This document shows positions 3,907 to 24,529 of a stretch of DNA of 64,000 bases, piece after piece. Source of the DNA: an uncultured delta proteobacterium (lineage in GTDB: Bacteria > Desulfobacterota > Binatia > Binatales > Binataceae); the NCBI GenBank assembly GCA_963717045.1, contig CAVQVD010000010.1:342255-406254 (forward strand), given 5' to 3'. The notes below the pieces were generated by a model. That model was not told the DNA's origin, searched no databases, and worked only from the letters and a program-made list of their open reading frames with translations. The position numbers and the translations under genes are program-made. Position 1 is the first letter of the stretch; every line of letters starts with the position of its first letter.

Positions 3907-4272
3907 ATGGCTGACGAAGAAAGGATGGAGCAGGGGCCCGGACACGGTGGCCATGAGCATGGCCGCGGACGCCCCGGAGGTTCGCGCTCCGACTCCGATC
4001 GCCCCGGCGAGGGCCGTGGTGGCGAGGGCCGGGGCGGCGGGATGCGTCGGCGGCCAGGCGGCGGCCGTCGCAAAGTGTGCCGCTTCTGCGCCGACAAGGC
4101 GCTCAAGGTCGATTACAAGGACGTGCGTACCTTGCAGAACTTCATCACCGAGGGTGGCAAGATTGTACCCAGTCGTACCTCGGGTAATTGCGCGCGCCAT
4201 CAGCGCCAACTTGCGGTCGCGATCAAGCGCGCCCGGGTGATCGCGCTGTTGCCCTTTTCGACCTTGGGATAA
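3907..4272 (+). CDS. rpsR: 30S ribosomal protein S18 (possibly with Gly/Arg/His-rich N-terminal extension; alternative start ATG 4042)
   Basis: The C-terminal 75 aa ([40 protein letters not shown]...[12 protein letters not shown]) is canonical S18. The upstream 45 codons are low-complexity ([13 protein letters not shown]) with high GC3, so the true start is ambiguous. Confidence 0.85.
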
Positions 4273-4291
4273 TGGGGATGACGAGCGAGCG

Positions 4292-5263
4292 TTGAGACGC
4301 GGGCGAATAATCGTCGGGCCGCTGGTAGGTGCGATTCGCGCGGCATTCCTGTCGGCGGCGCTCTATCTGGCAGCGGCCTTAGTGCCCCTGGTTGGCATGA
4401 TGGCTGCGCTGTTCGCGCCCGCGCCGACGCTGCTTTTCTCGGTAGGTTTTGCCCGCGCGCGAGTGCGTGCCGCGGTGGCTATCATGATCGGCGCAGCAGC
4501 GGTCATGGCGCTCGGTGGATGGACTGTGGCACTCGGCTACCTGGTGACCTTCGGTCTCGCAGCGGCCGTGATGTGCGACATGCTCGAGCGGCGCAAGCCC
4601 TTCGAGGCGATCGTGCTAGTGACCGCCGCGGTCGTGCTGGCGGCCAGCGTGATTGCAGCCTTCGCGATGGCTGGGTCGGTAGACGCGGTGGCAAAGGGCG
4701 TCCGCGATGGGCTAACGGCGGGAATGGCGCACGGCCACGACTTTTACAAGATGCTCGGAATCGAGACCGGGATGGCTCAGGAGGCGGAGGCCGGCCTGCT
4801 GGATATTATGCTGCGGCTGTGTCCGGCATTGGTGGCGTTGTGTGCGGGCTTCGGTGCGCTGCTCAATCTGGCGGTGTTTTGGCGGCTGGGAGGCCGGGAG
4901 CGGCTCGACTATCCTCTGTTCGGCGATTTGGCCCGCTGGTCGACGCCAGAATGGCTCATCTGGGTGCTGCTGGCGGCAGGGTTCGGAATGTTCGTTCCAG
5001 TGCCGGCGTTGGCCGTGGTAGCGATGGATGCCTTCGTATGCGTCGCGGCAGTCTATTTTTGCCAAGGCATGGCCATCATGGCCTTCTATTTTAAGACTTT
5101 GGTTATCCCGCCATGGGTCCGGGGGCTAATATATTTTGTTACAATAATCCAGCCGGTGCTGGCGGCTCTGGTGTGCGCGGCCGGTATTTTCGACCTGTGG
5201 GTAGATTTCCGGCGGCTCAAGCCGCCGAGCCAGGAAGCAGGTAGCTTCGGCGATTTTTTTTAG
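4292..5263 (+). CDS. DUF2232 (YybS-like) polytopic membrane protein
   Basis: 323 aa with multiple hydrophobic helices. Its position between rpsR and rplI is conserved for the YybS/DUF2232 family. Probable TTG start. Confidence 0.55.
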   Translation: MRRGRIIVGPLVGAIRAAFLSAALYLAAALVPLVGMMAALFAPAPTLLFSVGFARARVRAAVAIMIGAAAVMALGGWTVALGYLVTFGLAAAVMCDMLERRKPFEAIVLVTAAVVLAASVIAAFAMAGSVDAVAKGVRDGLTAGMAHGHDFYKMLGIETGMAQEAEAGLLDIMLRLCPALVALCAGFGALLNLAVFWRLGGRERLDYPLFGDLARWSTPEWLIWVLLAAGFGMFVPVPALAVVAMDAFVCVAAVYFCQGMAIMAFYFKTLVIPPWVRGLIYFVTIIQPVLAALVCAAGIFDLWVDFRRLKPPSQEAGSFGDFF

Positions 5264-5291
5264 GCGCCGTAAGGATTAAGCAATCCAGTCT

Positions 5292-5741
5292 ATGAACGTG
5301 CAAGTGATTCTCAGTGAGGACGTGCCCAACCTGGGCCGTCCGGGAGACGTGGTTAGGGTGCGCGCCGGCTATGCGCGAAACTATCTGTTGCCGCGCCGAC
5401 TCGCGGTCGAGGCCAACTCCAAGAACCTGCGCGCCTTCGAGCATCAGAAGGGCTTGGCGATGTTGCGGCGTGAGGCGAACAAGGGTCTGGCGGTAAAGCT
5501 CAAGCAACAGCTCGAAGCGTTGACGCTCACGATCGGCGCTAACGCAGGCGAAGAGGGCAAGTTGTTCGGATCGGTGACCAGTATCGATATCGAGCGTGCG
5601 CTGCGCGAGCACGGATTCAATATCGAACGGCGAAAGATAATGTTGGCGGAGCCGATCAAGCAGCTCGGCGAGTTCACCGTTCCGGTGAGGCTCGACCCGG
5701 AGGTTGAAGCTGACGTGAAGCTCACAGTCGCGGCGTCATAA
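5292..5741 (+). CDS. rplI: 50S ribosomal protein L9
   Basis: 149 aa. MNVQVILSEDVPNLGRPGDVVRVRAGYARNYLLPRRLA is the L9 N-domain signature. Confidence 0.92.
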   Translation: MNVQVILSEDVPNLGRPGDVVRVRAGYARNYLLPRRLAVEANSKNLRAFEHQKGLAMLRREANKGLAVKLKQQLEALTLTIGANAGEEGKLFGSVTSIDIERALREHGFNIERRKIMLAEPIKQLGEFTVPVRLDPEVEADVKLTVAAS

Positions 5742-5753
5742 GGCCATCCGGGT

Positions 5754-6392
5754 ATGATGAAACTCTACGATTTCCTGCCCTGCCCATTCGGTCAAAAAGT
5801 GCGGATCGTTCTGGCAGAAAAGAGCCTGACCTACGAGCTCATCCAGATCGATCTAGCCCAAGCCGACCAGCGGCGTCCCGAGTTCCTGCGCCTCAATCCA
5901 TTCGCCCGGGTTCCGGTGCTGGTTGACGAGGACACCACGGTCTACGATTCGACGATCATCGTCGAATATCTCGAAGATGAATACCCGGAGCCGCCGGTCC
6001 TGCCGACTCTGGGAGCGAGCGCGCTGCGTGCGCGAGCGCGGATGTTCGAGGATTTTGCCGACACGTCATTCACGCCGCAGGTCGGACAGCTCATGGCCGA
6101 GATGGCTCGGGCCGAGGGTGACCGCGATCAGGGACGTCTCCAGCGGTTGCATCGTTCGATCGAACGGGCGCTCGATTACCTGAATCACGAACTTACTGGC
6201 CAGCAGTTTCTCGCCGGCGACTTTTCAGTCGCCGACATTGGGTTCGCGCCGCGGATGCTCGTACTGAGCGAACTGGGCCTGGAGGCGAGCACTAATCGCT
6301 CAAACGTCGACGCCTGGATAAAGCGGCTGCTGGAGCGCGCGAGCATCCAATCCCTGCAGGGCGTGACGCTCGAGCCTCTGGCCGGAGTTTGA
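5754..6392 (+). CDS. glutathione S-transferase family protein
   Basis: 212 aa. MKLYDFLPCPFGQKVRIVLAEK...RVPVLVDED matches the GST N-terminal thioredoxin-like domain. Confidence 0.8.
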   Translation: MMKLYDFLPCPFGQKVRIVLAEKSLTYELIQIDLAQADQRRPEFLRLNPFARVPVLVDEDTTVYDSTIIVEYLEDEYPEPPVLPTLGASALRARARMFEDFADTSFTPQVGQLMAEMARAEGDRDQGRLQRLHRSIERALDYLNHELTGQQFLAGDFSVADIGFAPRMLVLSELGLEASTNRSNVDAWIKRLLERASIQSLQGVTLEPLAGV

Positions 6393-6619: not shown

Positions 6620-6922
6620 CTAGTAAGGTTGATCCTCGCCGAACAGCGGTTCTTCTTCATCGGCCCGGGTCGAGGCTACGCCCGTCGCTCGGTAGAGAAG
6701 CTTTGCAGCGAACAACTTGTTGCCCAGCCGACCCTGCGGCTTGAGCATCCCGCCATGCCTGCGACATCGCGGACAGGCCATCGTGCCGCTCAGCAGGCTC
6801 GCATTCTGTGGGGTGATTCGCAAATCGAAACTGGCCCCACATCCCGGGTTCTGACACAAGGTTCGATAAACGATACCCGGTCGGTCGCCAGTCTTGGTTT
6901 CAGTATTCATCGCAGTTTGCAT
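6620..6922 (-). CDS. small zinc-ribbon-like hypothetical protein
   Basis: 100 aa. Two CxxC-type pairs (CQNPGC ... CPRCRRHG). No recognisable family. Which of several in-frame Met codons is the start is uncertain. Confidence 0.35.
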   Translation of the reverse strand: MQTAMNTETKTGDRPGIVYRTLCQNPGCGASFDLRITPQNASLLSGTMACPRCRRHGGMLKPQGRLGNKLFAAKLLYRATGVASTRADEEEPLFGEDQPY

Positions 6923-7287
6923 AGCGCCATCTCCTTCCTGCGTCTATTTATCCGTATCGGTCGCGCCGTAGGATTAGACGTAAATGACTTGCAGAAGTTT
7001 CAAGCAAGCGATGTGCCGCAGCTAATTGTGGAATTAAATTGAAAAAAATTCCCCTTTAAATCCACAACTTAGGTGTTTCCGCCTGATTGACTTGCAGGAT
7101 CGGCGAATTTTCGCATTGTGATCCGTTTTTGCAACAAATCGGCATTCCTTTCTGCCAAAATGACCACAATGTCTCAGCTCCAGGTCTATTTTCGAGTGTT
7201 TTCTCTTTCACAGTGCTAAATATACGACGCTGCGGCAGCTTGGGATGAACGCGGCATTATTTGCGGGTTAAGAGTTAGGGTGGGGCA

Positions 7288-8523
7288 ATGAGGACGCTTG
7301 CGATGGTAATGGCTGGGGGGCTGGGCAGCAGACTGCATCCGCTGACCCGCGACCGAGCCAAGCCGGCGGTTCCTTTCGGGGGAAAATACCGGATCATCGA
7401 TTTCGTCCTTTCCAATCTCGTAAACTCACGAATTTACGCCATTTACGTACTGGTTCAATGGCGGTCGCAGTCGCTTATCGAGCACCTCAAGGACGGATGG
7501 CAGTTCGGAGGAATACTCAACGACCAGTTCGTCACTCCTGTCCCGGCTCAGATGCGGATGGGCGAGAGCTGGTACCAGGGCACTGCCGACGCCATCTTCC
7601 AGAACCTCAACCTGCTCGACGACAACAGTCCCGACCTGGTCGCGGTCTTCGGCGCCGACCATATCTATCGGATGGACATCCAGCAGATGATCGAGTTTCA
7701 CCTCGAGCGCAAGGCGGCCGTGACTGTCGCCACCATCCCGGTGCCGGTCGAGGAGTCCGCCCAATTCGGGATCGTCGATGTCGATTCGGGACTCCGCGTT
7801 TCAGGCTTCGACGAGAAGCCGTCCACCGCCCGTGCGATGCCGGGCGCGCCGGGTCAGTGCCTGGCCTCGATGGGTAATTACCTATTCGATCCCGACGTGT
7901 TGCGCCGCTCACTGGAGGAAGACTCGACAATCGCCTCGAGCCGCCACGACTTCGGCCACGATCTCATCCCGCGCCTCATTGAACGCGTGCCGGTCTATGC
8001 CTATAACTTCATGACTAATCGCATCCAGGGTGATTCCGAAGTCAACCTGAGTTATTGGCGCGACGTCGGCACGATAGACGCTTACTATGAGGCCAACATG
8101 GATCTGCGCGATGCGCGGCCTCATCTGAATCTCTACAACCAGCGCTGGCCGCTGCGCACGGCGTACTATGATCAGCCGCCAGCCAAGTTTGTGTTCGACG
8201 AGAACGGACGACGTGGCGAAGCGCTCCACTCGGTCATCTCCGAGGGTTGTATCGTGTCGGGCGGGATGGTGCGCAACTCGGTACTGGGCCGTTCGGTTTT
8301 CGTGCACTCGTGGAGCCAGGTCGAGGACTCGGTCCTGATGGACTATAGCGAGATCGGCCGCCACGCCCGCGTGCGCCGCGCGATCATCGACAAGAACGTC
8401 TCCGTGTCCGAAGGCGACGAGATCGGCTACAATCTCGAGCGCGATCGTCAGCGCTTTCACGTGACTGACTCCGGCCTGGTGGTGATTGCCAAGGCGCCCA
8501 AGCGCGAACGGCAGAGCCTGTGA
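7288..8523 (+). CDS. glgC: glucose-1-phosphate adenylyltransferase
   Basis: 411 aa. MVMAGGLGSRLHPLTRDRAKPAVPFGGKYRIIDFVLSNLVNS is the GlgC signature. It is preceded by an AT-rich promoter region (6950-7287). Confidence 0.9.
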   Translation: MRTLAMVMAGGLGSRLHPLTRDRAKPAVPFGGKYRIIDFVLSNLVNSRIYAIYVLVQWRSQSLIEHLKDGWQFGGILNDQFVTPVPAQMRMGESWYQGTADAIFQNLNLLDDNSPDLVAVFGADHIYRMDIQQMIEFHLERKAAVTVATIPVPVEESAQFGIVDVDSGLRVSGFDEKPSTARAMPGAPGQCLASMGNYLFDPDVLRRSLEEDSTIASSRHDFGHDLIPRLIERVPVYAYNFMTNRIQGDSEVNLSYWRDVGTIDAYYEANMDLRDARPHLNLYNQRWPLRTAYYDQPPAKFVFDENGRRGEALHSVISEGCIVSGGMVRNSVLGRSVFVHSWSQVEDSVLMDYSEIGRHARVRRAIIDKNVSVSEGDEIGYNLERDRQRFHVTDSGLVVIAKAPKRERQSL

Positions 8524-9644
8524 CACAAAGCCTCGTCCCCGGCCCGAGAGATAAGGCACTCACCGCCCCCGTTCCCCCGCCAGTCGGCGTCAACGGCGGG
8601 GCCGCGGGCGCCAAGTCGAGTCGCAACGCCGAGCCGGAAACTTCCCTGACAAAAAGCGGCCTCGCACGCGAGCATCGTCCGCCTCTTGCCGGGCTCAAGC
8701 TAAGCCGCAAAAACCGTCTGCTGTTCCAATTGATGCGCGCTGCGGTAATGGCCTTCAGCCTGCTGCCTGACTTCATTTTGTATCCGCTCGGAGTGCTCAT
8801 CGGTTATCTCGCGTTCCTGTTCGACCGTCGCCACGTCGCGATCGCGATGGTGAATCTGGCGATCGCGTTTCCAGAGCGCAGCGAACGCGAGCGCCGGCGC
8901 ATCGTGCGTGCCTCCTATATGAACCTGGGCCGCGGCGGCGCCGAGTATGTGCGGCTGGCCGGGTTTTTCCATCGTCGACTGATAGGACGCGTCGCCTATG
9001 AGCGCTTCCAATACTGGGACGAGATCAAGCGCCGCTACCCCGGCCGCGGTATCGTCGTGCTAAGCGCACACTTCGGCAACTTCGAGCTTTTGGCTACCGC
9101 GCACGCGCTTCACGGGCATCAGATAACCCTCATTCATCATACGCAGCGTTTCCTGGCCGGTGACGCGCTGATGACCTGGGTGCGCGAGCGCGCCGGCGTC
9201 GATGTCGTGCGCAAGCGTTCGGCCGCGCGCGCCGTGCTCAAAGCGCTCGGCGATGGCGACATGGTCGGCGTTCCGTTCGATCAGAACGCCAAGCGTGGCG
9301 AGGCGGTTTTCGTGCCGTTCTTCGGCGAGCCGGCGGCGACCTCGCGCACGCTGGCGCGGCTGGTGCAGAAATCGCACGCGATCGTGGTCCCGGTTTTCAT
9401 CGTCCGCGAACCCGGCAACCGCAGCCATCGCATCGTAATCCAGGACCTTATCGCCCTCCAGGAGAGCGCCGACCCAGAGGCCGATATCGAGGAGAACACC
9501 GCGCGCTTCCTGCGCCCAATCGAGGACATGGTGCGGCGCTATCCTGAGCAGTTTTTATGGCAGCATCGGCGCTACCGCACCCGGCCGCGCGGGATGGCGC
9601 CGCTCTACGCGGAAACCCGCCGACATCGCGATTCCCGCCGCTAA
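8520..9644 (+). CDS. lysophospholipid/lipid A-type acyltransferase (LPLAT, LpxL/HtrB superfamily); start uncertain
   Basis: The LPLAT core with HFGNFE...(H-x4-D/E-type) and PFDQNAKRGEAVFVPFFG motifs is present. The GTG at 8520 overlaps the glgC stop. The first ~60 codons are low-complexity, so a later start near 8700-8733 is possible. Confidence 0.65.
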   Translation: MTQSLVPGPRDKALTAPVPPPVGVNGGAAGAKSSRNAEPETSLTKSGLAREHRPPLAGLKLSRKNRLLFQLMRAAVMAFSLLPDFILYPLGVLIGYLAFLFDRRHVAIAMVNLAIAFPERSERERRRIVRASYMNLGRGGAEYVRLAGFFHRRLIGRVAYERFQYWDEIKRRYPGRGIVVLSAHFGNFELLATAHALHGHQITLIHHTQRFLAGDALMTWVRERAGVDVVRKRSAARAVLKALGDGDMVGVPFDQNAKRGEAVFVPFFGEPAATSRTLARLVQKSHAIVVPVFIVREPGNRSHRIVIQDLIALQESADPEADIEENTARFLRPIEDMVRRYPEQFLWQHRRYRTRPRGMAPLYAETRRHRDSRR

Positions 9645-9727
9645 ACGGCGCCGCAGGTGCGTCGCATTGGTTCTCTCCGGAACATCGTCCGCGCGGTAGT
9701 GCTTCTTCCATTGAAATAGAGTAGGGC

Positions 9728-10912
9728 ATGATGATGAACTTTGATTTGTTTGACGGCTCCTGCGCTGCCAGCGTGGTCTCGTCCGTTGCGGCGCTCGATA
9801 GGTCGCCAGACGTATCGTCAGAAACATTTCGGGCAGCGCCGGCCATTTTGGCCGCTGCCACGGCGCTCCCGCCCAACGTGATCGAGCAACAGTCGATTGC
9901 GGCCTTGCTCAAGGCTCTGTGGGGCGAGAAATATGACGACTCGCGCCGCTGGCGTTCGACCTTCGAGCAGATCCAGCGCTCGGTGCGGATCGATCGGCGC
10001 TACCTGGCGCTGCCGGTGAGCGAGTACCCGGCGCTCGACTCGTTCGCCAAGACCAACGCCGCCTGGACGCGTGAGGCTGCCGAGTTGGGTGCGACGGCCG
10101 CCCGCAACGTACTCGAGACGGCTGGGATGACGCCGCACGACGTCGACCATCTCTTCTTCGTCACCGGCACCGGGATCGCGACGCCAAGCCTCGACGCGCG
10201 AATCGTCAACCGCCTCGGGATGCGTCCGGACATCCGGCGCACGCCGATTTTCGGCCTGGGATGCGCCGGTGGAGTGGCTGGGGTCATCCGCGCCGCAGAC
10301 GTGCTCCGCGGCTTCCCGGACCAGGTCGCGATGGTCGTGTCGGCGGAGCTTTGCTCGCTTACTTTGCAACGCAACGACGATTCGGTCGCCAACATCATCG
10401 CCTCGGCGCTTTTCGGTGACGGCGCGGCGGCGGTGTTGCTGGGCGGCGCGCGGATAGCCAATCGCGGGGCTGGAGCGATTCCCCGGATCATCGCGACGCG
10501 CTCGGTTTTCTATCCCGATAGCGAACGAATGATGGGATGGGATGTGGTGGATAGCGGATTCAAGATAGTGCTTTCGGCCGCGATTCCCGACCTGGTGCGG
10601 GAGCACCTGGGCGACGACGTTGACGCGATTCTTGCCGGGCAGGGCCTTGCGCGATCGGCGATTAGCCATTGGATCGCGCACACCGGCGGCAACCGCGTGC
10701 TCGAGGCGATCGCCTCGGCGCTGGATCTTCCAGCGGGCGCGCTCGACCGTTCATGGCGGCTGCTCGCTGCGACCGGCAACCTGTCTTCGGCCTCGGTGCT
10801 GTTCGTGCTGCACGATCTGCTCGCGTCGTGCGCCGCCTCCTCCGGCGACTACGGACTGATGCTCGCGATGGGTCCGGGATTCTGCGCGGAGCTGGCACTG
10901 CTCCGATGGTGA
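9728..10912 (+). CDS. type III polyketide synthase (chalcone/stilbene synthase family)
   Basis: 394 aa. PAILAAATALPPNV, the catalytic-Cys context GLGCAGGV, and a C-terminal GFGPG-like motif (AMGPGFCAELALLRW) are present. There is a 35-aa N-terminal extension. Confidence 0.85.
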   Translation: MMMNFDLFDGSCAASVVSSVAALDRSPDVSSETFRAAPAILAAATALPPNVIEQQSIAALLKALWGEKYDDSRRWRSTFEQIQRSVRIDRRYLALPVSEYPALDSFAKTNAAWTREAAELGATAARNVLETAGMTPHDVDHLFFVTGTGIATPSLDARIVNRLGMRPDIRRTPIFGLGCAGGVAGVIRAADVLRGFPDQVAMVVSAELCSLTLQRNDDSVANIIASALFGDGAAAVLLGGARIANRGAGAIPRIIATRSVFYPDSERMMGWDVVDSGFKIVLSAAIPDLVREHLGDDVDAILAGQGLARSAISHWIAHTGGNRVLEAIASALDLPAGALDRSWRLLAATGNLSSASVLFVLHDLLASCAASSGDYGLMLAMGPGFCAELALLRW

Positions 10913-11523
10913 TTTCGCTCGGCGCATATCTGACGATCCTGGCAGCGCTCGCAGCCGAGCGGATGTTCCATCTTGCGCTCGCTGCGCGCAACGCGCGCCG
11001 CGCATTCGCGAGCGGTGCGGTCGAGCACGGGCAGAGCCACTACCCGGCGATGGCTGCGTTCCACGCCCTCTTCCTGCTCTCGGCCGCGGCCGAGGCAATC
11101 GTGCTTCAGCGCCCGTTTCCGGGAACGCTTGGATGGACCGCGCTTGGCGGCGCGCTCGGCGCGCAGGCGCTCCGTTACTGGTCCGTCGCGAGCCTCGGCT
11201 CCCGCTGGAATACGCGGATAATCGTGTTTCCCGGGATGCCGCCGGTGAAACGTGGGCCGTACCGCTTCATGCGCCATCCAAACTATCTCGCGGTGATCGT
11301 CGAGATTGCGTGCGTGCCGATGATCCGCGGATGCTGGATGACCGCGGTCGTGTTTTCGATTGGCAATGCGGTGCTGTTGCGAGTGCGAATTCGCGCCGAA
11401 GAAGCCGCGATGGGTCCGCGCTACGCGTCCGAGTTCGCAGACCGGCTGCGGCTGATTCCAAAACCTCCGCTCCGTCCCCCGCGCCTGGAATCTGATCGCG
11501 CCGCACAGCGCACCACCGTCTGA
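10906..11523 (+). CDS. isoprenylcysteine carboxyl methyltransferase (ICMT)-family membrane O-methyltransferase
   Basis: 205 aa. The ATG overlaps the PKS stop (ATGGTGA). The ICMT/PEMT signature RHPNYLAVIVE...MIRGCWMTAVVFSIGNAVLLRVRIRAEE is present. The arrangement resembles SrsB next to SrsA. Confidence 0.75.
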   Translation: MVISLGAYLTILAALAAERMFHLALAARNARRAFASGAVEHGQSHYPAMAAFHALFLLSAAAEAIVLQRPFPGTLGWTALGGALGAQALRYWSVASLGSRWNTRIIVFPGMPPVKRGPYRFMRHPNYLAVIVEIACVPMIRGCWMTAVVFSIGNAVLLRVRIRAEEAAMGPRYASEFADRLRLIPKPPLRPPRLESDRAAQRTTV

Positions 11524-11650
11524 ACACGCCTCGCCGAAGCGGAGCGTGGCACCGGCTCTCGCAATGCGGTTGAATCGCGATAGACTGGGCGGCCAACGTT
11601 CCGCGCGGAAGCCCGGACGCTTCCCGCCATAACCATCGAGGCTTTTTAAA

Positions 11651-12067
11651 ATGAGCAAGACTTTCGAGAAACATGGAATCACGGCCGAGTTCGCTAACGA
11701 GTTGATCGACGCGGCCGTCGCAAAAGCCAGGGAACTCAAGGTTCCGCAGTGCGTCGCCGTGGTCGATGACGGCGGAAATCTGAAAGCATTCGTCCGTATG
11801 GACGGAGCGCCGCTCATTCCGATCGAGATCGCACAAAGCAAGGCCTACACCGCGCTGTTCGGCTTTCCGACCCACGAGTTTTTCAACTTCATCAAGGGCG
11901 ACCCTTCGCTGGTCGCAGGTATCGCTTCACGCCCGCGCGTCGCGGCTTTCGGCGGTGGTTACCCGATCAAAGTCGAGGGTCAAATAGTCGGAGCAATAGG
12001 CGTCAGCGGGGGGACGGTCGAACAGGACATGCAATGCGCCGAGGCGGCCTTGAAGCTCATACAGTAA
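11651..12067 (+). CDS. GlcG/HbpS-like (DUF336) heme-binding protein
   Basis: 138 aa. The ...GGNLKAFVRMDGAP...GAIGVSGGTVEQDM pattern is typical of DUF336. Confidence 0.7.
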   Translation: MSKTFEKHGITAEFANELIDAAVAKARELKVPQCVAVVDDGGNLKAFVRMDGAPLIPIEIAQSKAYTALFGFPTHEFFNFIKGDPSLVAGIASRPRVAAFGGGYPIKVEGQIVGAIGVSGGTVEQDMQCAEAALKLIQ

Positions 12068-12093
12068 TTATTGAAGCAGATTGCGAATACGGC

Positions 12094-12122
12094 GGAGCGC
12101 ATCGCGAGAGGCGATGCGCTCC
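12094..12122. terminator. perfect 12-bp inverted repeat hairpin between convergent genes
   Basis: ggagcgcatcgc-gagag-gcgatgcgctcc lies between the GlcG-like gene (+) and the FecR-like gene (-). There is no clear U-tract. Confidence 0.35.
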
Positions 12123-12224
12123 GTCCAAACCTTAGGCCTTAATCTTTGTGCACGCGCAGTGTAGCCCTGAGTGTATCGACTTGACGCGCGGCGCCCTGCG
12201 AGTCTCGGTCTCTTTCTATCTTGA

Positions 12225-12707
12225 TTAGGGATTCACAGGCGGCGGCTGACCCTCGTGATACGCCACGTCGAACATCGTGCCGCGAGCGGAGGCGACCGCG
12301 TTAGGAGTGTGAACTTCGAAGTTTGGAGCGCCGGACGGACTAAAGTGAACCAGTGAGCGCACCAATCCGCTCAGCAGAGTCACCTTGGTACTGGCGCGCG
12401 ACCCGTCGGGGTTAAGGGTATCTTGCGTCAGCACAAGAGTGCTCGACTCGTTGAGTTCCAACTGGCTGCCGTCACTGAGTTTGATAGTGACCCGGCTGTT
12501 CGGCCCGGTCGTGAACTTGTCTCCGACCTGAACGCCAGAGCCGTTGGCGGCGGGAATCGACTTGCCAGCCCGCTCGAGGCTGGCAGTGCCGGTGACCTCG
12601 CTGATCGCGCCGGCAGGGGTCTGTGCCCAAGCATGAGGCACCGAAACCAGTAAAACGGCCGCAAAGAAGCTTGCCGACGCCACTATTTGCGTAATTACCT
12701 TCGACAT
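12225..12707 (-). CDS. secreted FecR-domain protein
   Basis: 160 aa with an N-terminal signal peptide. The VQVGDKFTTGPNSRVTIKLSDGSQLEL pattern is FecR-like. Confidence 0.55.
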   Translation of the reverse strand: MSKVITQIVASASFFAAVLLVSVPHAWAQTPAGAISEVTGTASLERAGKSIPAANGSGVQVGDKFTTGPNSRVTIKLSDGSQLELNESSTLVLTQDTLNPDGSRASTKVTLLSGLVRSLVHFSPSGAPNFEVHTPNAVASARGTMFDVAYHEGQPPPVNP

Positions 12708-12807: not shown

Positions 12808-13707
12808 CTATGAGGCGGAGCGGCCGGTGAGTCGCGGCACGAGGGCCAGGATGACCAGTGCTATCAACCAGGCCGCCGTGCCGCTGATGATCGGCGGCCG
12901 TCCATAGCCGGCAATCCATGGCGATGGCGAAGCGCCGGGTGTATCGCCAAAGGGCCATAGCTTTGCGCCGACCACCAAGCCGGCATGCAGTCCCATCGAA
13001 AAATAGACGTTGCCGGTCACCAGGAAAGCCTCGCCCAGCGCCAGGCCGAGCAGGAATAATCCGACCAGCGCCGGCAACGCGGCCGCGGGATGGGTCAGTT
13101 GTGCGAGGCTCGCGTAAAGATTGTGAAAGCCGGCGGTTGCGTCGTAGCTTGTCAGATAAAATCGCGCGGGTGAGCGCACCAGGTGCGCCAGCGCATACAC
13201 CACAGAGCTAAGCACCAGCGCGCCGGTGCGCCCGAAGTCCTCGATTATCCCGCCCAGCAAAAAGGCGCGAAAGAATCCTTCCTCGATTAGTGCGATCAGG
13301 ATTGCCCCGGCGACGTACTTGGGCGCGCGCGCCAATGCCTCGCCGACTCGCATCTCAACGCGGCCGCCGAATGCCGCGCCGAGTGCGAGCAGAATCGCGA
13401 TCACCACCGCCGCGACCAGCAATCCGCGGACAAGCGCTCCCAGATTATCCAGCGGACGGGCGAAGCCACGCCGCAACAGACGCGCGACTCCCAGTTGACG
13501 CGCCCACAGCGTCAGCATCAGCGCCAGCGTGACCATCACCGTGCGGTCGAAAATGCGCGGGAAGGGAAAATGATAGCCGGCGCGGGCGAGCGCGATTGCG
13601 GCGAACGGCGCGATGAGCGCGGCTGCGGCGGCTGCTAGCAAAAGGGCGATCGTTACTCTCAGCGTGAAGGGCATTTTGCTATGCGTCGGCGTTCGGCTGG
13701 TGCACAA
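12808..13707 (-). CDS. CPBP family intramembrane metalloprotease (CAAX protease/Abi)
   Basis: 299 aa and polytopic. The IEEGFFRAFLLG (EExxxR) and HL motifs are present. Confidence 0.7.
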   Translation of the reverse strand: MCTSRTPTHSKMPFTLRVTIALLLAAAAAALIAPFAAIALARAGYHFPFPRIFDRTVMVTLALMLTLWARQLGVARLLRRGFARPLDNLGALVRGLLVAAVVIAILLALGAAFGGRVEMRVGEALARAPKYVAGAILIALIEEGFFRAFLLGGIIEDFGRTGALVLSSVVYALAHLVRSPARFYLTSYDATAGFHNLYASLAQLTHPAAALPALVGLFLLGLALGEAFLVTGNVYFSMGLHAGLVVGAKLWPFGDTPGASPSPWIAGYGRPPIISGTAAWLIALVILALVPRLTGRSAS

Positions 13708-14645: not shown

Positions 14646-16112
14646 TCAACGAGACTGAGGACGTATGTAAAGAACCCTGTTCGCGCCGTACCTGTAATGA
14701 ATCGGAAACGTTTGCTCCAGCCAGCCGGCAAATCCCGGCAGACGCTCGAGCCGGCCGCTCCATAGCAATACCGCTTTCACTCGATAGCGCTCGATTTCGT
14801 TTTTTACTTCGGCAGTGGACAGATAGTGGTTGTCGATACGTTTCAGTGAGGTGTCAGCCAGCCACGCCGGTACCTTGCGACCGGACCAGAACGCAATTCC
14901 TTGCGCGTCGGTCACGATGAAATCGGCCTTATCGGTCAGCCGCGCCAAATCAGCGGCAACCATGAGATCCGCGGTTGGTGGATGAGGGAACGCCAACAGC
15001 CATTGCTCTCCGGCACGACCAGCAAGACCGCCGCGGCAGGCCATCGTGAAAAGAATCAGGGCAGCAACCATCGGTGCAAGGGTCACAACCTGTCCGTAGA
15101 TGCCTGCGCCCGCGCTCGCTGCAGTGACTTGCCGTCGTCTGCCCAGCTTCCACAAGGCGCTAATGGCGATTCCTGCCGACAGCGCGATCGGCGGAATAAG
15201 ACTGACCACATGATGAGTGAACAGCGGCTGCTGGACAATCAAAGCGACCAGCGTCAGCGCGAGCCAGCTGAGCGCAGCCCATCCGCTCCAGGGCTCCAGG
15301 ACAGCGCAAGCGGCAAGCACCAGTGCGGAGAACATTATGGGATCTCGACCCAGCGTCGCTACTATCAAGTCCCAGTTGCGGGCCGGGCTGGAGCTGGCCT
15401 GCGAGGTCAGATGAAACGCCACCACTTGTGTCCAAACCTCGTGCGGCCCGTACGTCAACGCCAGCGCCGCGACAACTCCAAATATGATTCCAAGGACCAG
15501 CAAAGTGTCGGCCGCGATGCACCAGAGCCTTTGTCGTAGCTGACCCGCCGACCGCCATCGCTCAGCCGCAATTACCAAAGTGGGCGCAATGGCGTAGAGC
15601 TCAAACAGCTTGACCTGCAATCCGAGGGCGAGTACCAGAGCTGCCGCGCCTAGCCACAGACGCTTGCCGCTCGATCGGTATTGCGTTGCCAGCACGAACG
15701 CCACGGCCGCAAAAGCCGCGGCGGGCAGTTCGCCGGTGATCTCGCGGGCCCAATAGAACGCCAGCGGCGACAACAGGAGTGTCATGCATGCGAAGACCGC
15801 TCCCAGCCATACACCGCCGTCGAGCACGACGGTGCCCACCGCAACGGTCGTGATCACCAGCGCGGTCACGGTGAGCAGTTGAGCGGCGCGCACGTTTTGA
15901 CCGAAAACTGTGAAGGAGCAGCGGATTAGTTCCAGCCACACGGGCGGCTGCGAAACGAAAATTTCCCGATACGGTGCGTAACCGGCAGCCGCCATCCGAG
16001 CCGATTCCAGGTACACGCCGCCATCGTAGAAATCGCTGTACTGGCCAAGATTCCGATAGGCGGGCGCGGCCATCACCACGACCACCACCAGGAATCCTGC
16101 CACGCGCAACAT
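14646..16112 (-). CDS. GT-C fold membrane glycosyltransferase (family 39/ArnT/PMT-like)
   Basis: About 490 aa with at least 10 TM helices in the N-terminal two-thirds and a soluble C-terminal domain. The start is probably M44 of the 531-aa ORF. Confidence 0.5.
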   Translation of the reverse strand: MLRVAGFLVVVVVMAAPAYRNLGQYSDFYDGGVYLESARMAAAGYAPYREIFVSQPPVWLELIRCSFTVFGQNVRAAQLLTVTALVITTVAVGTVVLDGGVWLGAVFACMTLLLSPLAFYWAREITGELPAAAFAAVAFVLATQYRSSGKRLWLGAAALVLALGLQVKLFELYAIAPTLVIAAERWRSAGQLRQRLWCIAADTLLVLGIIFGVVAALALTYGPHEVWTQVVAFHLTSQASSSPARNWDLIVATLGRDPIMFSALVLAACAVLEPWSGWAALSWLALTLVALIVQQPLFTHHVVSLIPPIALSAGIAISALWKLGRRRQVTAASAGAGIYGQVVTLAPMVAALILFTMACRGGLAGRAGEQWLLAFPHPPTADLMVAADLARLTDKADFIVTDAQGIAFWSGRKVPAWLADTSLKRIDNHYLSTAEVKNEIERYRVKAVLLWSGRLERLPGFAGWLEQTFPIHYRYGANRVLYIRPQSR

Positions 16113-16265
16113 CCGGTGTTCGAGATATCGCCTCAACGGAAGGACGGGTGCCTTTAGCAATTTCGCTTCTAGCGATCTTCTTATTTGACTTGGAGGTAAC
16201 GCCGCTTGCGAAGATATCCTGAGACTGACCCCGCAAGGCAATGACAGTGGGTTGGCGAATCGGCG

Positions 16266-21951: not shown

Positions 21952-23907
21952 ATGAATCGAGCCACCACGTCGGCGCAGGACGCGAAGACAAAACCGCGCT
22001 CGCGCGAGCCCTGGATCATCAGGACTTATGCCGGTTTCGGCGACGCTCATCAGGCCAATCGCCGCTTTTTGGAGAACTTAAGCCGCGGCCAGCGCGGTCT
22101 CTCGATCGCTTTCGATCTGCCCACGCAAAACGGTTACGACCCTGACGCGCCGATCGCCGCGGGCGAGGTCGGGAAGGCCGGCGTGTCGATCTGCCACTGG
22201 AGCGACATGGAGGAGTTGCTCGCCGGAATCGACCTCGGCGCGATCAACACCTCGATGACGATCAACGCGACCGCGCCCTTTCTGCTTGCGCTCTATCTGG
22301 TGGTCGCCGAGAAGCGCGGGGTGCCGTGGACGGAGCTGCGGGGCACCACGCAGAACGATCTGCTGAAGGAGTTCGTCGCGCGCGGCACCTCGATTTTCCA
22401 TCCCGAGGTCTCTTTCCGCATCTCGACCGAGCTCATCGGCTTTGCGGTCGAGCGCGTGCCCAACTGGAACCCGATCAACTGCTGCGGTTACCACTACATG
22501 GAAAGCGGCGCCGGCCCAGCCGAGGAAATCGGCTACACCTTCGGCAACGCGTTGATGATTCTCGACGCGCTGCGACCGCGCGTCTCGCCCGAGGCCTTCG
22601 AGCAGACGGTGCGGCGCATCTCATTCTTCATCAACAGCGGCATCGAACTGGTGCCCGAGATCTGCAAGGTGCGCGCATATTTCAGCTTGTGGCGCGAGCT
22701 TTGCCGCGACGAATACGGTATCGATGATGTCGCCTTTCGTGCCGGGTGTCAGGTGCGTTCGCTGACGCTCACCGAGCGTCAGCCCGAGCTCAACATCATT
22801 CGCATCGCCTACGAAGCGTTGCCGGTGGTGATCTCGGCGGCCGCCCGCGTCAACGCCCTGCAGCTCCCCGGCTTTCGCGAGGCGATGGCATTGCCCGACC
22901 AGGCCGAACAGGCGCTCAGCCTGCGCACGCAGCAGATCCTGATGCACGAGACCGGACTCGCCGAGTGGGGCGACATCTTCGAAGGCAGCAAGGTGGTCGA
23001 GAAACTGACCGGCGAGATTGCGGATCGCGCGCGCGCAATCGCGCTTTCACTTCGCACCGCGGGCTACTCGCGCGCGATCGCCACTGTCGGCGGGGAGCTG
23101 ACGCGCCTGCTCGCCGAGCGGCAGCGCAGGCTCGCGAGCGGCGAGCTGGTGCAGGTCGGGGTTAACGCGTTTCTCGGCGAGATTGGTCTCACCGGCCCGG
23201 GCGCGGAGGTCGACGATGCGCCGCAGCTCGCGGCGGCCGAGCGCGAGCGGATCGAATCGCTCATCCAATGGCGCCGCGAGCGCGACACTCGCAACGCCGA
23301 CGCGGTCGCCCAAGCACGCGAAGCGCTGGAGCGCGCCGCCGCAAGCGGTACCGGCGTGATGGAGCCGACGCTCGACCTCGCACGCGCCGGCGGCACAGTC
23401 GGCGAATGGACCGCCACTATCGAGCGCGGCACCAACGGTCGCTACACGCCGCCCGTGCTCGATCGCACGATGACGCTCGCTTCGCTTAGCGTACCCCGCG
23501 CGCCGAGGCGTATCCGTATCGCGCTCGGTAAGGCTGGATTGGACGGCCATATCAACGCGGTCAAGCTGCTAGCGCACGCCTGCATGCAGGCCGGGATGGA
23601 AGTGATCCTGGCCGGCTTCAAGCAGACCCCCGCACAGATGGTCGAGACCGCGCTGCAGGAAGATGCCGAGGTGTTGGCGATAAGCTCGCTCGCCGGCGCC
23701 CATCTTGCGATCGCCCGCGAGACGATAGCGCTGCTCAAGGAACATGATGCGACAGACGTGAGGTTGGTGATGGGCGGAGTGATTCCCAGCCGTGACCGAC
23801 AGGCTTTGCTCGAGATGGGGGTGCGGGCGGTATTCACGCCAAAGGATTCCGACCTCGGCGAGATCGTGCGGCGGATTATCGAAGTGTGCGACGGCGCGGC
23901 GCAATGA
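21952..23907 (+). CDS. methylmalonyl-CoA mutase family protein (catalytic TIM-barrel plus C-terminal B12-binding domain)
   Basis: 651 aa. The mutase core RTYAGFG...GLSIAFDLPTQNGYDPD is present. The C-terminal IALGKAGLDGHINAVKLLA...GVRAVFTP is a cobalamin-binding Rossmann domain. Confidence 0.85.
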   Translation: MNRATTSAQDAKTKPRSREPWIIRTYAGFGDAHQANRRFLENLSRGQRGLSIAFDLPTQNGYDPDAPIAAGEVGKAGVSICHWSDMEELLAGIDLGAINTSMTINATAPFLLALYLVVAEKRGVPWTELRGTTQNDLLKEFVARGTSIFHPEVSFRISTELIGFAVERVPNWNPINCCGYHYMESGAGPAEEIGYTFGNALMILDALRPRVSPEAFEQTVRRISFFINSGIELVPEICKVRAYFSLWRELCRDEYGIDDVAFRAGCQVRSLTLTERQPELNIIRIAYEALPVVISAAARVNALQLPGFREAMALPDQAEQALSLRTQQILMHETGLAEWGDIFEGSKVVEKLTGEIADRARAIALSLRTAGYSRAIATVGGELTRLLAERQRRLASGELVQVGVNAFLGEIGLTGPGAEVDDAPQLAAAERERIESLIQWRRERDTRNADAVAQAREALERAAASGTGVMEPTLDLARAGGTVGEWTATIERGTNGRYTPPVLDRTMTLASLSVPRAPRRIRIALGKAGLDGHINAVKLLAHACMQAGMEVILAGFKQTPAQMVETALQEDAEVLAISSLAGAHLAIARETIALLKEHDATDVRLVMGGVIPSRDRQALLEMGVRAVFTPKDSDLGEIVRRIIEVCDGAAQ

Positions 23908-24453: not shown

Positions 24454-24529
24454 TGGAGGCGGCGGGCGGATTCGAACCGCCGAATCGAGGTTTTGCAGAC
24501 CTCTCCCTTAACCACTTGGGTACGCCGCC
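24454..24529 (-). tRNA. tRNA-Cys (GCA), CCA encoded
   Basis: The reverse complement reads GGCGGCGTACCCAAGTGGTTAAGGGAGAGGTCTGCAAAACCTCGATTCGGCGGTTCGAATCCGCCCGCCGCCTCCA. It has a 7-bp acceptor stem, a T-loop TTCGAAT and the anticodon GCA. Confidence 0.9.

Follow-up and report, generated by a model that had tools for sequence, protein, structure and literature searches.

Overlapping genes for a type III polyketide synthase and an ICMT-family methyltransferase, a probable minimal phenolic-lipid module in an uncultured Candidatus Binataceae bacterium

Pairs of a type III polyketide synthase (PKS) and an ICMT-type methyltransferase (MT) make membrane phenolic lipids, which have been linked to cyst formation, beta-lactam tolerance and alternative respiration. 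Two genes of these kinds overlap on the forward strand of a 64-kb stretch of DNA (64,000 nucleotides, here called the window) from an uncultured Candidatus Binataceae bacterium, and the question is what they make. The two genes probably form a minimal phenolic-lipid module, and the product predicted from sequence is a set of O-methylated long-chain alkylresorcinols or alkylpyrones, not quinones. A literature search on type III PKS in Binatota/Binatia found nothing specific.

The PKS gene (9728..10912, + strand) encodes a protein of 394 amino acids that belongs to the long-chain alkylresorcinol/alkylpyrone synthase subgroup. All of its Pfam matches (PF00195, PF02797 and PF08392, including FAE1_CUT1_RppA) lie above the gathering score, with Chal_sti_synt_N at an E value of 1.4e-26 (93.8 bits, cut-off 27) and Chal_sti_synt_C at 9.9e-17 (61.8 bits, cut-off 27). 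The open reading frame opens with three consecutive ATGs, the third of which (9734) is the best placed with respect to an AGGG/GAGG Shine-Dalgarno sequence. No substitution in the Cys-His-Asn triad (C179, H318, N351) is seen among 31 homologues or in any of the 79 sequences of the locus set, and C179 aligns with C138 of Pks11, which is replaced by Ser in entry 4jat. The AF2 model has a pLDDT of 88 and a pTM of 0.88. An exact-sequence look-up returned no identical entry, and homologues carry the JGI label 'alkylresorcinol/alkylpyrone synthase'.

Two further positions bear on the product and on the starter. The Trp at the ArsB W281 position, which is tied to aldol (resorcinol) cyclisation, is present as W271; it is invariant in the 31 homologues and aligns with Pks11 W230, a position equated with ArsB W281 and reported to be conserved in the resorcinol-forming FtpA, SrsA, PKS10 and PKS11 (PMC5916927). 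DquA also has this Trp, yet pyrones are its only products (PMC9827899), so the residue is not fully predictive and the sequence cannot decide between resorcinol and pyrone. The residue five positions after the catalytic His is basic (R323). Enzymes with Arg or Lys here have been associated with starters carried on ACP, and those with Ala with CoA starters (PMC9827899), but a basic residue occurs in every architecture class of the locus set, and the position was rejected as a discriminator of the starter source, on which it is uninformative.

The N-terminus of the PKS is extended by residues 1 to about 37 (9728..9838, + strand), an Ala/Ser-rich segment predicted to be disordered, with AlphaFold pLDDT below 50 over residues 1-27; the conserved core starts near residue 37-38. 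Extensions of Binataceae PKSs are variable in length, Ala/Ser-rich and poorly conserved except for the start MN(L/F)(D/E)L(F/L)DG, and the segment is missing in more distant homologues, in Pks11 and in the Archangium PKS. The sequence-only reading had described 35 residues beyond canonical chalcone synthases (CHS); the extension is real, but its length was overstated, the excess over the Pfam/plant CHS profile being only about 24 residues.

The junction with the MT gene is an ATGGTGA stop/start overlap (10906..10912, + strand) within gctccgATGGTGA (10900-10912). In one frame it ends the PKS with Arg-Trp-stop (TGA, 10910-10912), and in the other it begins the MT with Met-Val (ATG at 10906), whose frame ends at 11523; the earlier description of a PKS gene ending in ATGGTGA, with this ATG opening a 205-aa ICMT frame, is confirmed base for base. 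The A of the MT start codon is supplied by the penultimate PKS codon CGA, a rare one that makes up only 7.8% of the Arg codons in the window genes. No Shine-Dalgarno sequence was found at normal spacing before the MT ATG. Because of the overlap geometry, the two genes are likely to be translationally coupled. In a sample of 80 species-level loci, each holding a relative of the window MT, a type III PKS gene lies directly upstream of that relative in 77 of the 80 species-representative genomes, from Binatia, Myxococcota, Acidobacteriota and Actinomycetota. The 7-nt overlap is identical in 46 of these 77 PKS-MT loci, and 13 further loci were scored as 4-nt overlaps. With these frequencies the pairing is not by chance. 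Pairwise distances of PKS and MT correlate (r = 0.88), a value reached by none of 999 Mantel permutations.

The MT (10906..11523, + strand, 205 aa) is an ICMT-family integral membrane SAM-dependent methyltransferase of the SrsB/BpsB/FtpB type. It matches Pfam ICMT at 1.7e-26 (92.9 bits, cut-off 24), and hydrophobic segments are present in its sequence. The motif RHPNYLAVIVE, named in the earlier reading, stands at residues 123-133. R123-H-P-N-Y127 and E165-E166 are invariant among homologues, and the RHPxY and EE motifs align to the ICMT of Methanosarcina acetivorans (Ma-ICMT). The AF2 model (pLDDT 88.6) has long helices at residues 5-35, 45-67, 73-100, 125-139 and 144-169. Its top fold match in the PDB is Ma-ICMT (4a2n; TM 0.63/0.66 over 192 columns), followed by eukaryotic ICMT. 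The fold and the cofactor-site motifs are thus the same as those of Ma-ICMT at 18% sequence identity, whereas the substrate of the window MT is predicted to be a phenolic lipid and not a prenylated cysteine. A protein encoded on a 3.5-kb NCBI contig has the same sequence as the MT (100% identity), and automated pipelines name the Binataceae homologues of the MT "methyltransferase". The families, catalytic residues and fold, together with a pairing that keeps its junction across at least four phyla, support the view that the two genes are a PKS and ICMT-family MT pair of the srsAB kind.

That kind was recognized correctly in calling the locus an srsAB-like module, although among named relatives the ftpA/ftpB-type pair of Myxococcus stands nearer than srsA/srsB. 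The closest named system is a five-gene locus of M. xanthus AM003 (L022), with 55% identity to the window PKS and 60% to the MT; it is taken as ftp by species and architecture. FtpA of the M. xanthus ftpA-ftpE cluster is stated to yield alkylresorcylic acid (Hayashi et al. 2011, as cited in PMC10896814 and PMC6836626). An Archangium locus with the order PKS-MT-ACP-AMP-ligase-FAD oxidoreductase is likewise similar (PKS 57%, MT 65% identity) and has the same PKS-MT order and the same ATGGTGA overlap. The ftp-type PKSs have the triad, the Trp and the basic residue after His in common with the window PKS. In contrast to the ftp systems, the window pair has no ACP, fatty acyl-AMP ligase or FAD oxidoreductase beside it, its PKS bears the extra disordered N-terminus, and its MT has an extra basic, proline-rich C-terminal tail.

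Actinobacterial PKS-MT-oxidoreductase loci were found with the MT profile in Streptomyces (L087; PKS 49%, MT 52% identity to the window pair) and Nocardioides (L084). The srsABC genes of S. griseus and pkqABC of M. smegmatis also place a PKS before an ICMT-family MT, and the first two proposed steps are alike (PMC9927152); their products are alkylresorcinol methyl ethers and alkyl benzoquinones. The window differs from them in the lack of the third gene (hydroxylase/oxidoreductase), and the actinobacterial junction is usually not the 7-nt overlap. The bpsAB genes of B. subtilis and dquAB of Sporomusaceae, likened here by architecture, have the same two-gene arrangement and enzyme families as the window, namely a type III PKS and an ICMT-like MT with no further tailoring genes; alkylpyrones or alkylresorcinols and the corresponding methyl ethers are their products. 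Both bpsAB and dquAB are tied to sporulating lineages, and no such link is known for Binatia. The dquAB genes are described as a two-gene locus in PMC9827899, which also states that BpsB O-methylates BpsA products.

The most serious alternative is that PKS and MT carry out the opening steps of a polyketide-quinone pathway of the pkq/srs/ftp type, in which a hydroxylase encoded elsewhere would turn the methylated alkylresorcinol into an alkyl benzoquinone serving as alternative respiratory electron carrier. An FAD oxidoreductase adjoins the MT in almost all nearest relatives of other phyla; PKS-methyltransferase-hydroxylase operons of S. griseus and M. smegmatis yield alkyl benzoquinones (PMC9927152), and three-gene operons are reported to give respiratory quinones (PMC9927152; PMC10896814). 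Against it, no FAD-dependent hydroxylase adjoins the MT in the window or in the Binatia-type loci, nor do a dedicated ACP and a fatty acyl-AMP ligase follow the MT in the window. When the Archangium ACP, fatty acyl-AMP ligase and FAD oxidoreductase were used as tblastn queries, none matched in the 64-kb window, and none of the three appeared when 38 proteins of the window, covering most of its larger ORFs, were scanned with Pfam. In the PKS-MT-only loci, about two dozen that form a coherent clade, tblastn found no FAD oxidoreductase within +/-7 kb. Since the oxidoreductase is tightly linked in every other class, its retention at an unlinked site would be unusual, and the quinone pathway is considered unlikely. 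With hydroxylase, ACP and fatty acyl-AMP ligase absent from 64 kb, a methylated phenolic lipid is predicted and not a benzoquinone.

Upstream of the PKS lies an intergenic region of 83 nt (9645..9727, + strand) with a ribosome-binding site, a presumed promoter and a short palindrome, GTTC-N6-GAAC (9670-9683), conserved in an alignment of 10 Binataceae loci. The palindrome occurs at 5 sites in the window against 0.92 expected, and its intergenic copies have no common extended motif. Scans of positions 6900-12300 found no promoter and no sigma-70 consensus, and for terminators nothing convincing, the terminator-like matches being at chance level; the pair may therefore be co-transcribed with the upstream glgC and LpxL-like genes. 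Rfam and tRNA scans of the window detected only a tRNA-Cys (24454-24529), far from the locus.

A lipid-A-type acyltransferase and a GlcG/DUF336 protein had been noted within 3 kb of the pair, and both are there: an LpxL-like protein (Pfam Lip_A_acyltrans; 8520..9644, + strand) and, as the next gene after the MT, an HbpS-like (DUF336/GlcG) protein (Pfam; 11651..12067). This raises the possibility that glgC, the LpxL-like gene, PKS and MT form one four-gene operon for an acylated or glycosylated phenolic lipid of the envelope. All four share one strand; glgC overlaps the LpxL-like gene by 4 nt, and the PKS follows after a gap of 83 nt. Binataceae relatives preserve this order as far as 73% PKS identity, and in Pyxidicoccus (L031) and Myxococcus (L042), too, the gene just before the PKS is glgC. 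However, glgC passes the NCBIfam cut-offs as a true glucose-1-phosphate adenylyltransferase gene of glycogen synthesis and is 95-96% conserved, while the LpxL-like protein is below every NCBIfam equivalog cut-off. In a close relative (L010) a histidine kinase gene separates the LpxL-like gene from the PKS and leaves the PKS-MT pair intact, and in L016, L040 and the Binatus clade the pair occurs without glgC and without the LpxL-like gene. The LpxL-like and DUF336 genes are found with PKS-MT only in close Binataceae, where synteny extends over all 15 kb between rpsF and manC, so that adjacency carries little information. A four-gene operon is accordingly very improbable, and the envelope-lipid theme proposed from the sequence finds no support in these neighbours. 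A functional link of the LpxL-like, DUF336 and Rce1-like neighbours to PKS-MT was rejected, as nothing beyond family-level synteny speaks for it.

It is more doubtful still that the MT is functionally unrelated to the PKS, being either a phospholipid N-methyltransferase or an isoprenylcysteine-type enzyme that acts with the Rce1-like protease encoded nearby. The MT does match Pfam PEMT, marginally (26.3 bits, cut-off 25) and over the same stretch as ICMT, but PEMT is not its best-scoring family and the ICMT score is far higher; the enzyme is thus ICMT-type and not PEMT-type, which removes an objection raised beforehand against the module. A gene for an Rce1-like CPBP protease is indeed present on the opposite strand 1.3 kb downstream, with synteny in Binataceae, but it occurs only in the closest Binataceae loci, and the NCBIfam model for protein-S-isoprenylcysteine O-methyltransferase scores 32.9 on the MT against a cut-off of 160. 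The adjacency of MT relatives and type III PKS across phyla, with its conserved overlap, also speaks against an unrelated function.

The other objection foreseen was that the PKS might group with RppA/THNS, which it does not. Its bit scores are 302 with Pks11, 179 with CylI, 140 with THNS (1u0m) and at most 130 with plant enzymes (E values 5.9e-89 for Pks11 and 7.6e-40 for THNS), and it is closer to characterised alkylresorcinol/alkylpyrone synthases than to RppA/THNS, DpgA or plant CHS. The best solved relative is the alkylpyrone synthase Pks11 of M. tuberculosis (4jao), with 46% identity over 316 residues and an identical C-terminus, ...LLRW, but with no N-terminal extension. The pks11 gene is not known to have an adjacent ICMT gene. 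In a midpoint-rooted neighbour-joining tree drawn without support values, in which THNS, ArsB, BpsA and SrsA were left out and placed by bit scores instead, the PKS stands in a PKS-MT-only Binatia clade that is sister to the myxobacterial ftp-type clade; farthest away in the tree is the actinobacterial clade. That the PKS makes a non-lipid aromatic (of the tetrahydroxynaphthalene/RppA type, phloroglucinol or dihydroxyphenylacetate) from malonyl-CoA alone is hardly credible: DpgA is its best NCBIfam match by name, but at 198 bits falls far below the cut-off of 425, the enzyme is much nearer to Pks11 and the ftp-type PKSs than to THNS, and it is invariably paired with an MT embedded in the membrane, as would suit a lipid substrate.

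For the minimal phenolic-lipid module, the following course is proposed by homology. The soluble PKS would be primed with a long-chain fatty acyl thioester, either acyl-CoA or acyl-ACP. On Cys179, with His318 and Asn351 as the other members of the triad, the chain would grow by three malonyl or methylmalonyl units. The tetraketide would be cyclised most likely by aldol chemistry to an alkylresorcinol or alkylresorcylic acid, with alkylpyrones as possible side or main products. The five-helix ICMT-fold MT, embedded in the membrane, would then use SAM to O-methylate a phenolic or pyrone hydroxyl, and the methyl ethers would remain in the membrane. As the MT start lies within the last two sense codons of the PKS gene and has no Shine-Dalgarno sequence of its own at normal spacing, ribosomes that end the PKS probably re-initiate on the MT, which would tie the synthesis of the two proteins together.

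The Binatia two-gene form appears to be derived from an ftp-like ancestor by gene loss. A wider proposal is tentative and rather unlikely as a whole: in Binatia an ftp-like cluster would have been reduced to PKS and MT and settled in a housekeeping neighbourhood (rpsF ... glgC ... manC), its PKS bearing the lineage-specific disordered tail, and the methylated phenolic lipids that it makes, none of them quinones, would be a normal component of the membrane in an uncultured, non-sporulating soil lineage, with starters direct from the fatty acid synthesis of the cell. In this view the tail might serve to anchor the soluble PKS at the membrane or at the MT.

The PKS-MT unit is real but ordinary, and its kind is known from earlier work on Streptomyces, Myxococcus, Bacillus and mycobacteria. 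What is added here is that the pair extends to uncultured Binatia, that its stop/start overlap is kept across phyla, and that the starter-loading and hydroxylase genes have apparently been lost in the Binatia version. If expressed, the two genes would provide a simple route to methylated alkylresorcinols or alkylpyrones, and they may give a clue to membrane chemistry in an abundant soil lineage.

The type III polyketide synthase (PKS) gene lies at 9728..10912 on the plus strand of the window (GC content 63%) and encodes 394 amino acids; the gene for the ICMT-family methyltransferase (MT) follows on the same strand, from an ATG at 10906 to 11523, and encodes 205 amino acids. The junction reads CGATGGTGA, giving Arg-Trp-stop in frame 1 and Met-Val in frame 2. 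The coordinates and description of the pair in the sequence-only reading were correct, as the ORFs, the junction, the Pfam families, the motif and the neighbours were re-found. In the upstream alignment, a GAGG-type Shine-Dalgarno sequence is best placed for the third of three PKS ATGs (9734); in the window, none was seen at normal spacing upstream of the MT ATG. The A of this ATG comes from a CGA arginine codon in the PKS frame, and CGA accounts for only 7.8% of the Arg codons in the genes of the window. An MT profile was searched against one genome per species (GTDB representatives), the best 80 loci were retained, and PKS presence and junctions were scored by tblastn and junction analysis. 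A type III PKS is located directly 5' of the MT in 77 of these 80 loci. The 7-nt overlap (A/G)TGGT(G/A)A, as in the window, was found in 46 of the 77 PKS-MT loci, and a 4-nt overlap was scored in 13, most of which also hold ATGGTGA. The pairwise distances of PKS and MT are correlated (r = 0.88), a value reached by 0 of 999 Mantel permutations. Taken together, the conserved pairing and junction, the correlated distances, the rare CGA codon and the absent Shine-Dalgarno sequence support selection for the overlap; the mechanism that we infer, termination-reinitiation coupling of the two genes, is probable. The MT lacks an upstream PKS in three of the best 80 loci (L017, L037 and L054); a class-I-like methyltransferase ORF precedes it in L017, and the neighbours in L054 are unrelated. 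A PKS of 61% identity (GCA_021325025.1; L004/L005, P0114) has no adjacent MT. The pair is uncoupled occasionally.

The PKS matches Chal_sti_synt_N, FAE1_CUT1_RppA and Chal_sti_synt_C of Pfam, each above cut-off, and scores far under the cut-off of the NCBIfam DpgA model. Its closest solved structure is the alkylpyrone synthase Pks11 of Mycobacterium tuberculosis (E 5.9e-89, 46% identity over 316 residues), followed by CylI (1.2e-51), the tetrahydroxynaphthalene-synthase structure 1u0m (7.6e-40) and, more weakly, the plant enzymes. Cys179, His318 and Asn351 do not vary among 31 homologues, and Cys179 aligns with the Pks11 cysteine mutated in entry 4jat. Trp271 aligns with Trp230 of Pks11, the position of ArsB Trp281, which is conserved in the resorcinol-forming FtpA, SrsA, PKS10 and PKS11 (PMC5916927). 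DquA carries the same Trp and yields pyrones only (PMC9827899), and therefore a resorcinol or pyrone ring cannot be called from the PKS sequence. Arg or Lys at the His+5 position was linked to ACP-bound starters and Ala to CoA starters (PMC9827899); this residue (Arg323 in the window) is basic in all architecture classes examined and therefore does not discriminate the starter type here. Asn-Arg follows the catalytic HTGG in the clade of the window PKS (residues 322-323, window about 10691-10696), where Pro-Lys or Pro-Arg stands in nearly all other clades, Pks11 among them; in the alignment this is a small lineage signature. The AlphaFold model (pLDDT 88, pTM 0.88) is confident apart from residues 1-27. 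The N-terminal extension pointed out in the sequence-only reading is indeed present in all close Binataceae homologues, but it is Ala/Ser-rich and variable, placing a few to about 45 residues ahead of the conserved core, with conservation limited to the first eight residues. More distant homologues lack it, as do the Archangium PKS and Pks11, and it is read as a lineage-specific disordered tail rather than a new domain.

The MT gives a strong Pfam match to ICMT (92.9 bits) and a marginal one to PEMT. Its AlphaFold model (pLDDT 88.6, pTM 0.80) has five long helices, and the closest PDB fold is the archaeal ICMT 4a2n (TM 0.63/0.66 over 192 columns), with eukaryotic ICMT second. RHPNYLAVIVE occupies residues 123-133, and the motifs RHPxY and EE, which align with Ma-ICMT, do not vary among 30 homologues. 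The protein scored 32.9 against a cut-off of 160 with the NCBIfam protein-S-isoprenylcysteine O-methyltransferase model; it belongs to the ICMT fold family, outside that orthologue group. Binataceae MTs bear a basic, proline-rich C-terminal tail of ~20 residues (about 180-205 in the window MT), poorly conserved and with a pLDDT around 55 in the window model, that myxobacterial homologues lack. An Rce1-like CPBP intramembrane protease is encoded 1.3 kb 3' of the MT (12808-13707, minus strand). In eukaryotes, Rce1 and then ICMT act in sequence on prenylated proteins. Synteny of the Rce1-like gene is confined to the closest Binataceae loci (L001-L003, L009-L015), and other loci do not have it near the pair; its proximity is therefore probably a coincidence.

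The 77 PKS-MT loci were sorted into three architecture classes. The five-gene (ftp-type) order PKS-MT-ACP-AMP ligase-FAD oxidoreductase occurs in Myxococcota and Acidobacteriota/Thermoanaerobaculia and takes in L022 of Myxococcus xanthus, from which ftpA-E was described; an Archangium locus retrieved via its MT shows the complete, Pfam-labelled order. The three-gene (srsABC/pkqABC-type) order PKS-MT-FAD oxidoreductase occurs in Actinomycetota and a few Archangium, and the two-gene order, PKS-MT alone, in Binataceae, Candidatus Binatus and related MAGs. No match in the window was obtained with the Archangium ACP, fatty acyl-AMP ligase (FAAL) and oxidoreductase as tblastn queries, and Pfam found no AMP-binding, PP-binding or FAD monooxygenase domain in the 38 proteins scanned from the window, which cover most of its larger ORFs. 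A midpoint-rooted NJ tree places the window PKS in a PKS-MT-only clade sister to the myxobacterial five-gene clade; the Thermoanaerobaculia five-gene lineages lie deeper, and the actinobacterial three-gene loci and Pks11 outside. The simplest reading of this tree, which carries no support values, is loss of the ACP, FAAL and oxidoreductase genes in the Binatia lineage.

The sequence-only reading had also seen an envelope-lipid theme among the neighbours. The genes it named are present, Lip_A_acyltrans (LpxL-like) at 8520..9644 (plus strand) and HbpS-like/DUF336 at 11651..12067, both by Pfam. The LpxL-like protein reached no NCBIfam equivalog cut-off, and its gene, just 5' of the PKS, overlaps by 4 nt (GTGA) a true glgC (7288-8523, plus strand; NCBIfam 597.7 bits against a cut-off of 458, TIGR02091 459 against 425) that is 95-96% conserved among relatives. 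Binataceae synteny spans rpsF, rplI, GST, glgC, the LpxL-like gene, PKS and MT, on to pgm and manC, and adjacency within the family is therefore hardly informative. In L010, a histidine-kinase gene (461 aa; 4145-5530) separates the LpxL-like gene from an intact PKS-MT unit and upstream leader; L002 lacks the downstream DUF336 gene; and in L016, L040 and the Binatus clade the pair occurs without glgC, LpxL-like or DUF336 neighbours. The theme is thus not supported. About 40 nt of the L010 leader (5684-5858) resemble the LpxL-like gene at its 3' end, which would fit a duplication of that end by the insertion. Directly 5' of their ftp-type PKS, Pyxidicoccus (L031, 4446-5681) and Myxococcus sp. 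(L042, 4422-5660) have a glgC homologue (50% identity); M. xanthus L022 does not.

The palindrome GTTC-N6-GAAC occurs five times in the window (0.92 expected), at 1571, 9670, 27468, 57948 and 63107; three copies are intergenic, among them the PKS-upstream one, conserved in Binataceae, and no extended motif common to the window copies was found. A 100-aa, zinc-ribbon-like ORF with paired cysteines (C-x4-C ... C-x2-C; 6620-6922, minus strand) matched no Pfam or NCBIfam family; L001-L003 each have a called gene that agrees with it in size and position. Between two SDR genes lies the gene for a multi-pass membrane protein of 531 aa (14646-16241, minus strand), which matches PMT_2 (GT-C glycosyltransferase) weakly, below cut-off; its absence at this place in L001 and L002 suggests a local insertion.

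In the proposed pathway, Cys179 would be loaded with a long-chain acyl thioester and extended three times, and malonyl-CoA is expected as the extender; methylmalonyl-CoA may also serve, being an extender of FtpA- and SrsA-type enzymes (PMC5916927). This second extender could be supplied by a methylmalonyl-CoA mutase encoded 10 kb from the PKS (21952-23907, plus strand), a single-chain protein that includes a fused B12-binding domain and scores below the NCBIfam equivalog cut-off. Cyclisation would give an alkylresorcinol, alkylresorcylic acid or alkylpyrone, which the membrane MT would O-methylate with SAM, as reported for BpsB on BpsA products (PMC9827899). The Streptomyces griseus operon reportedly pairs its methyltransferase with a hydroxylase (PMC9927152); lacking a hydroxylase gene, the pair here would not be expected to yield a benzoquinone.

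The close homologues of the two proteins are from soil and peat metagenomes; the named ones are assigned to Candidatus Binataceae, and JGI annotates the homologues as "alkylresorcinol/alkylpyrone synthase" and "methyltransferase". A short NCBI MAG contig, which also has the PKS-MT-DUF336 order, encodes a protein 100% identical to the MT. No description of type III PKSs in Binatia was found in the literature searched. Precedents have been characterised for every element: for the pairing of the enzymes, for the two-gene architecture (bpsAB, dquAB) and for the chemistry; the window pair is a reduced gene set in an uncultured lineage, its proteins already recognised by annotation pipelines. By analogy, the default expectation is that the Binatia PKS-MT product would be a membrane-modifying lipid.
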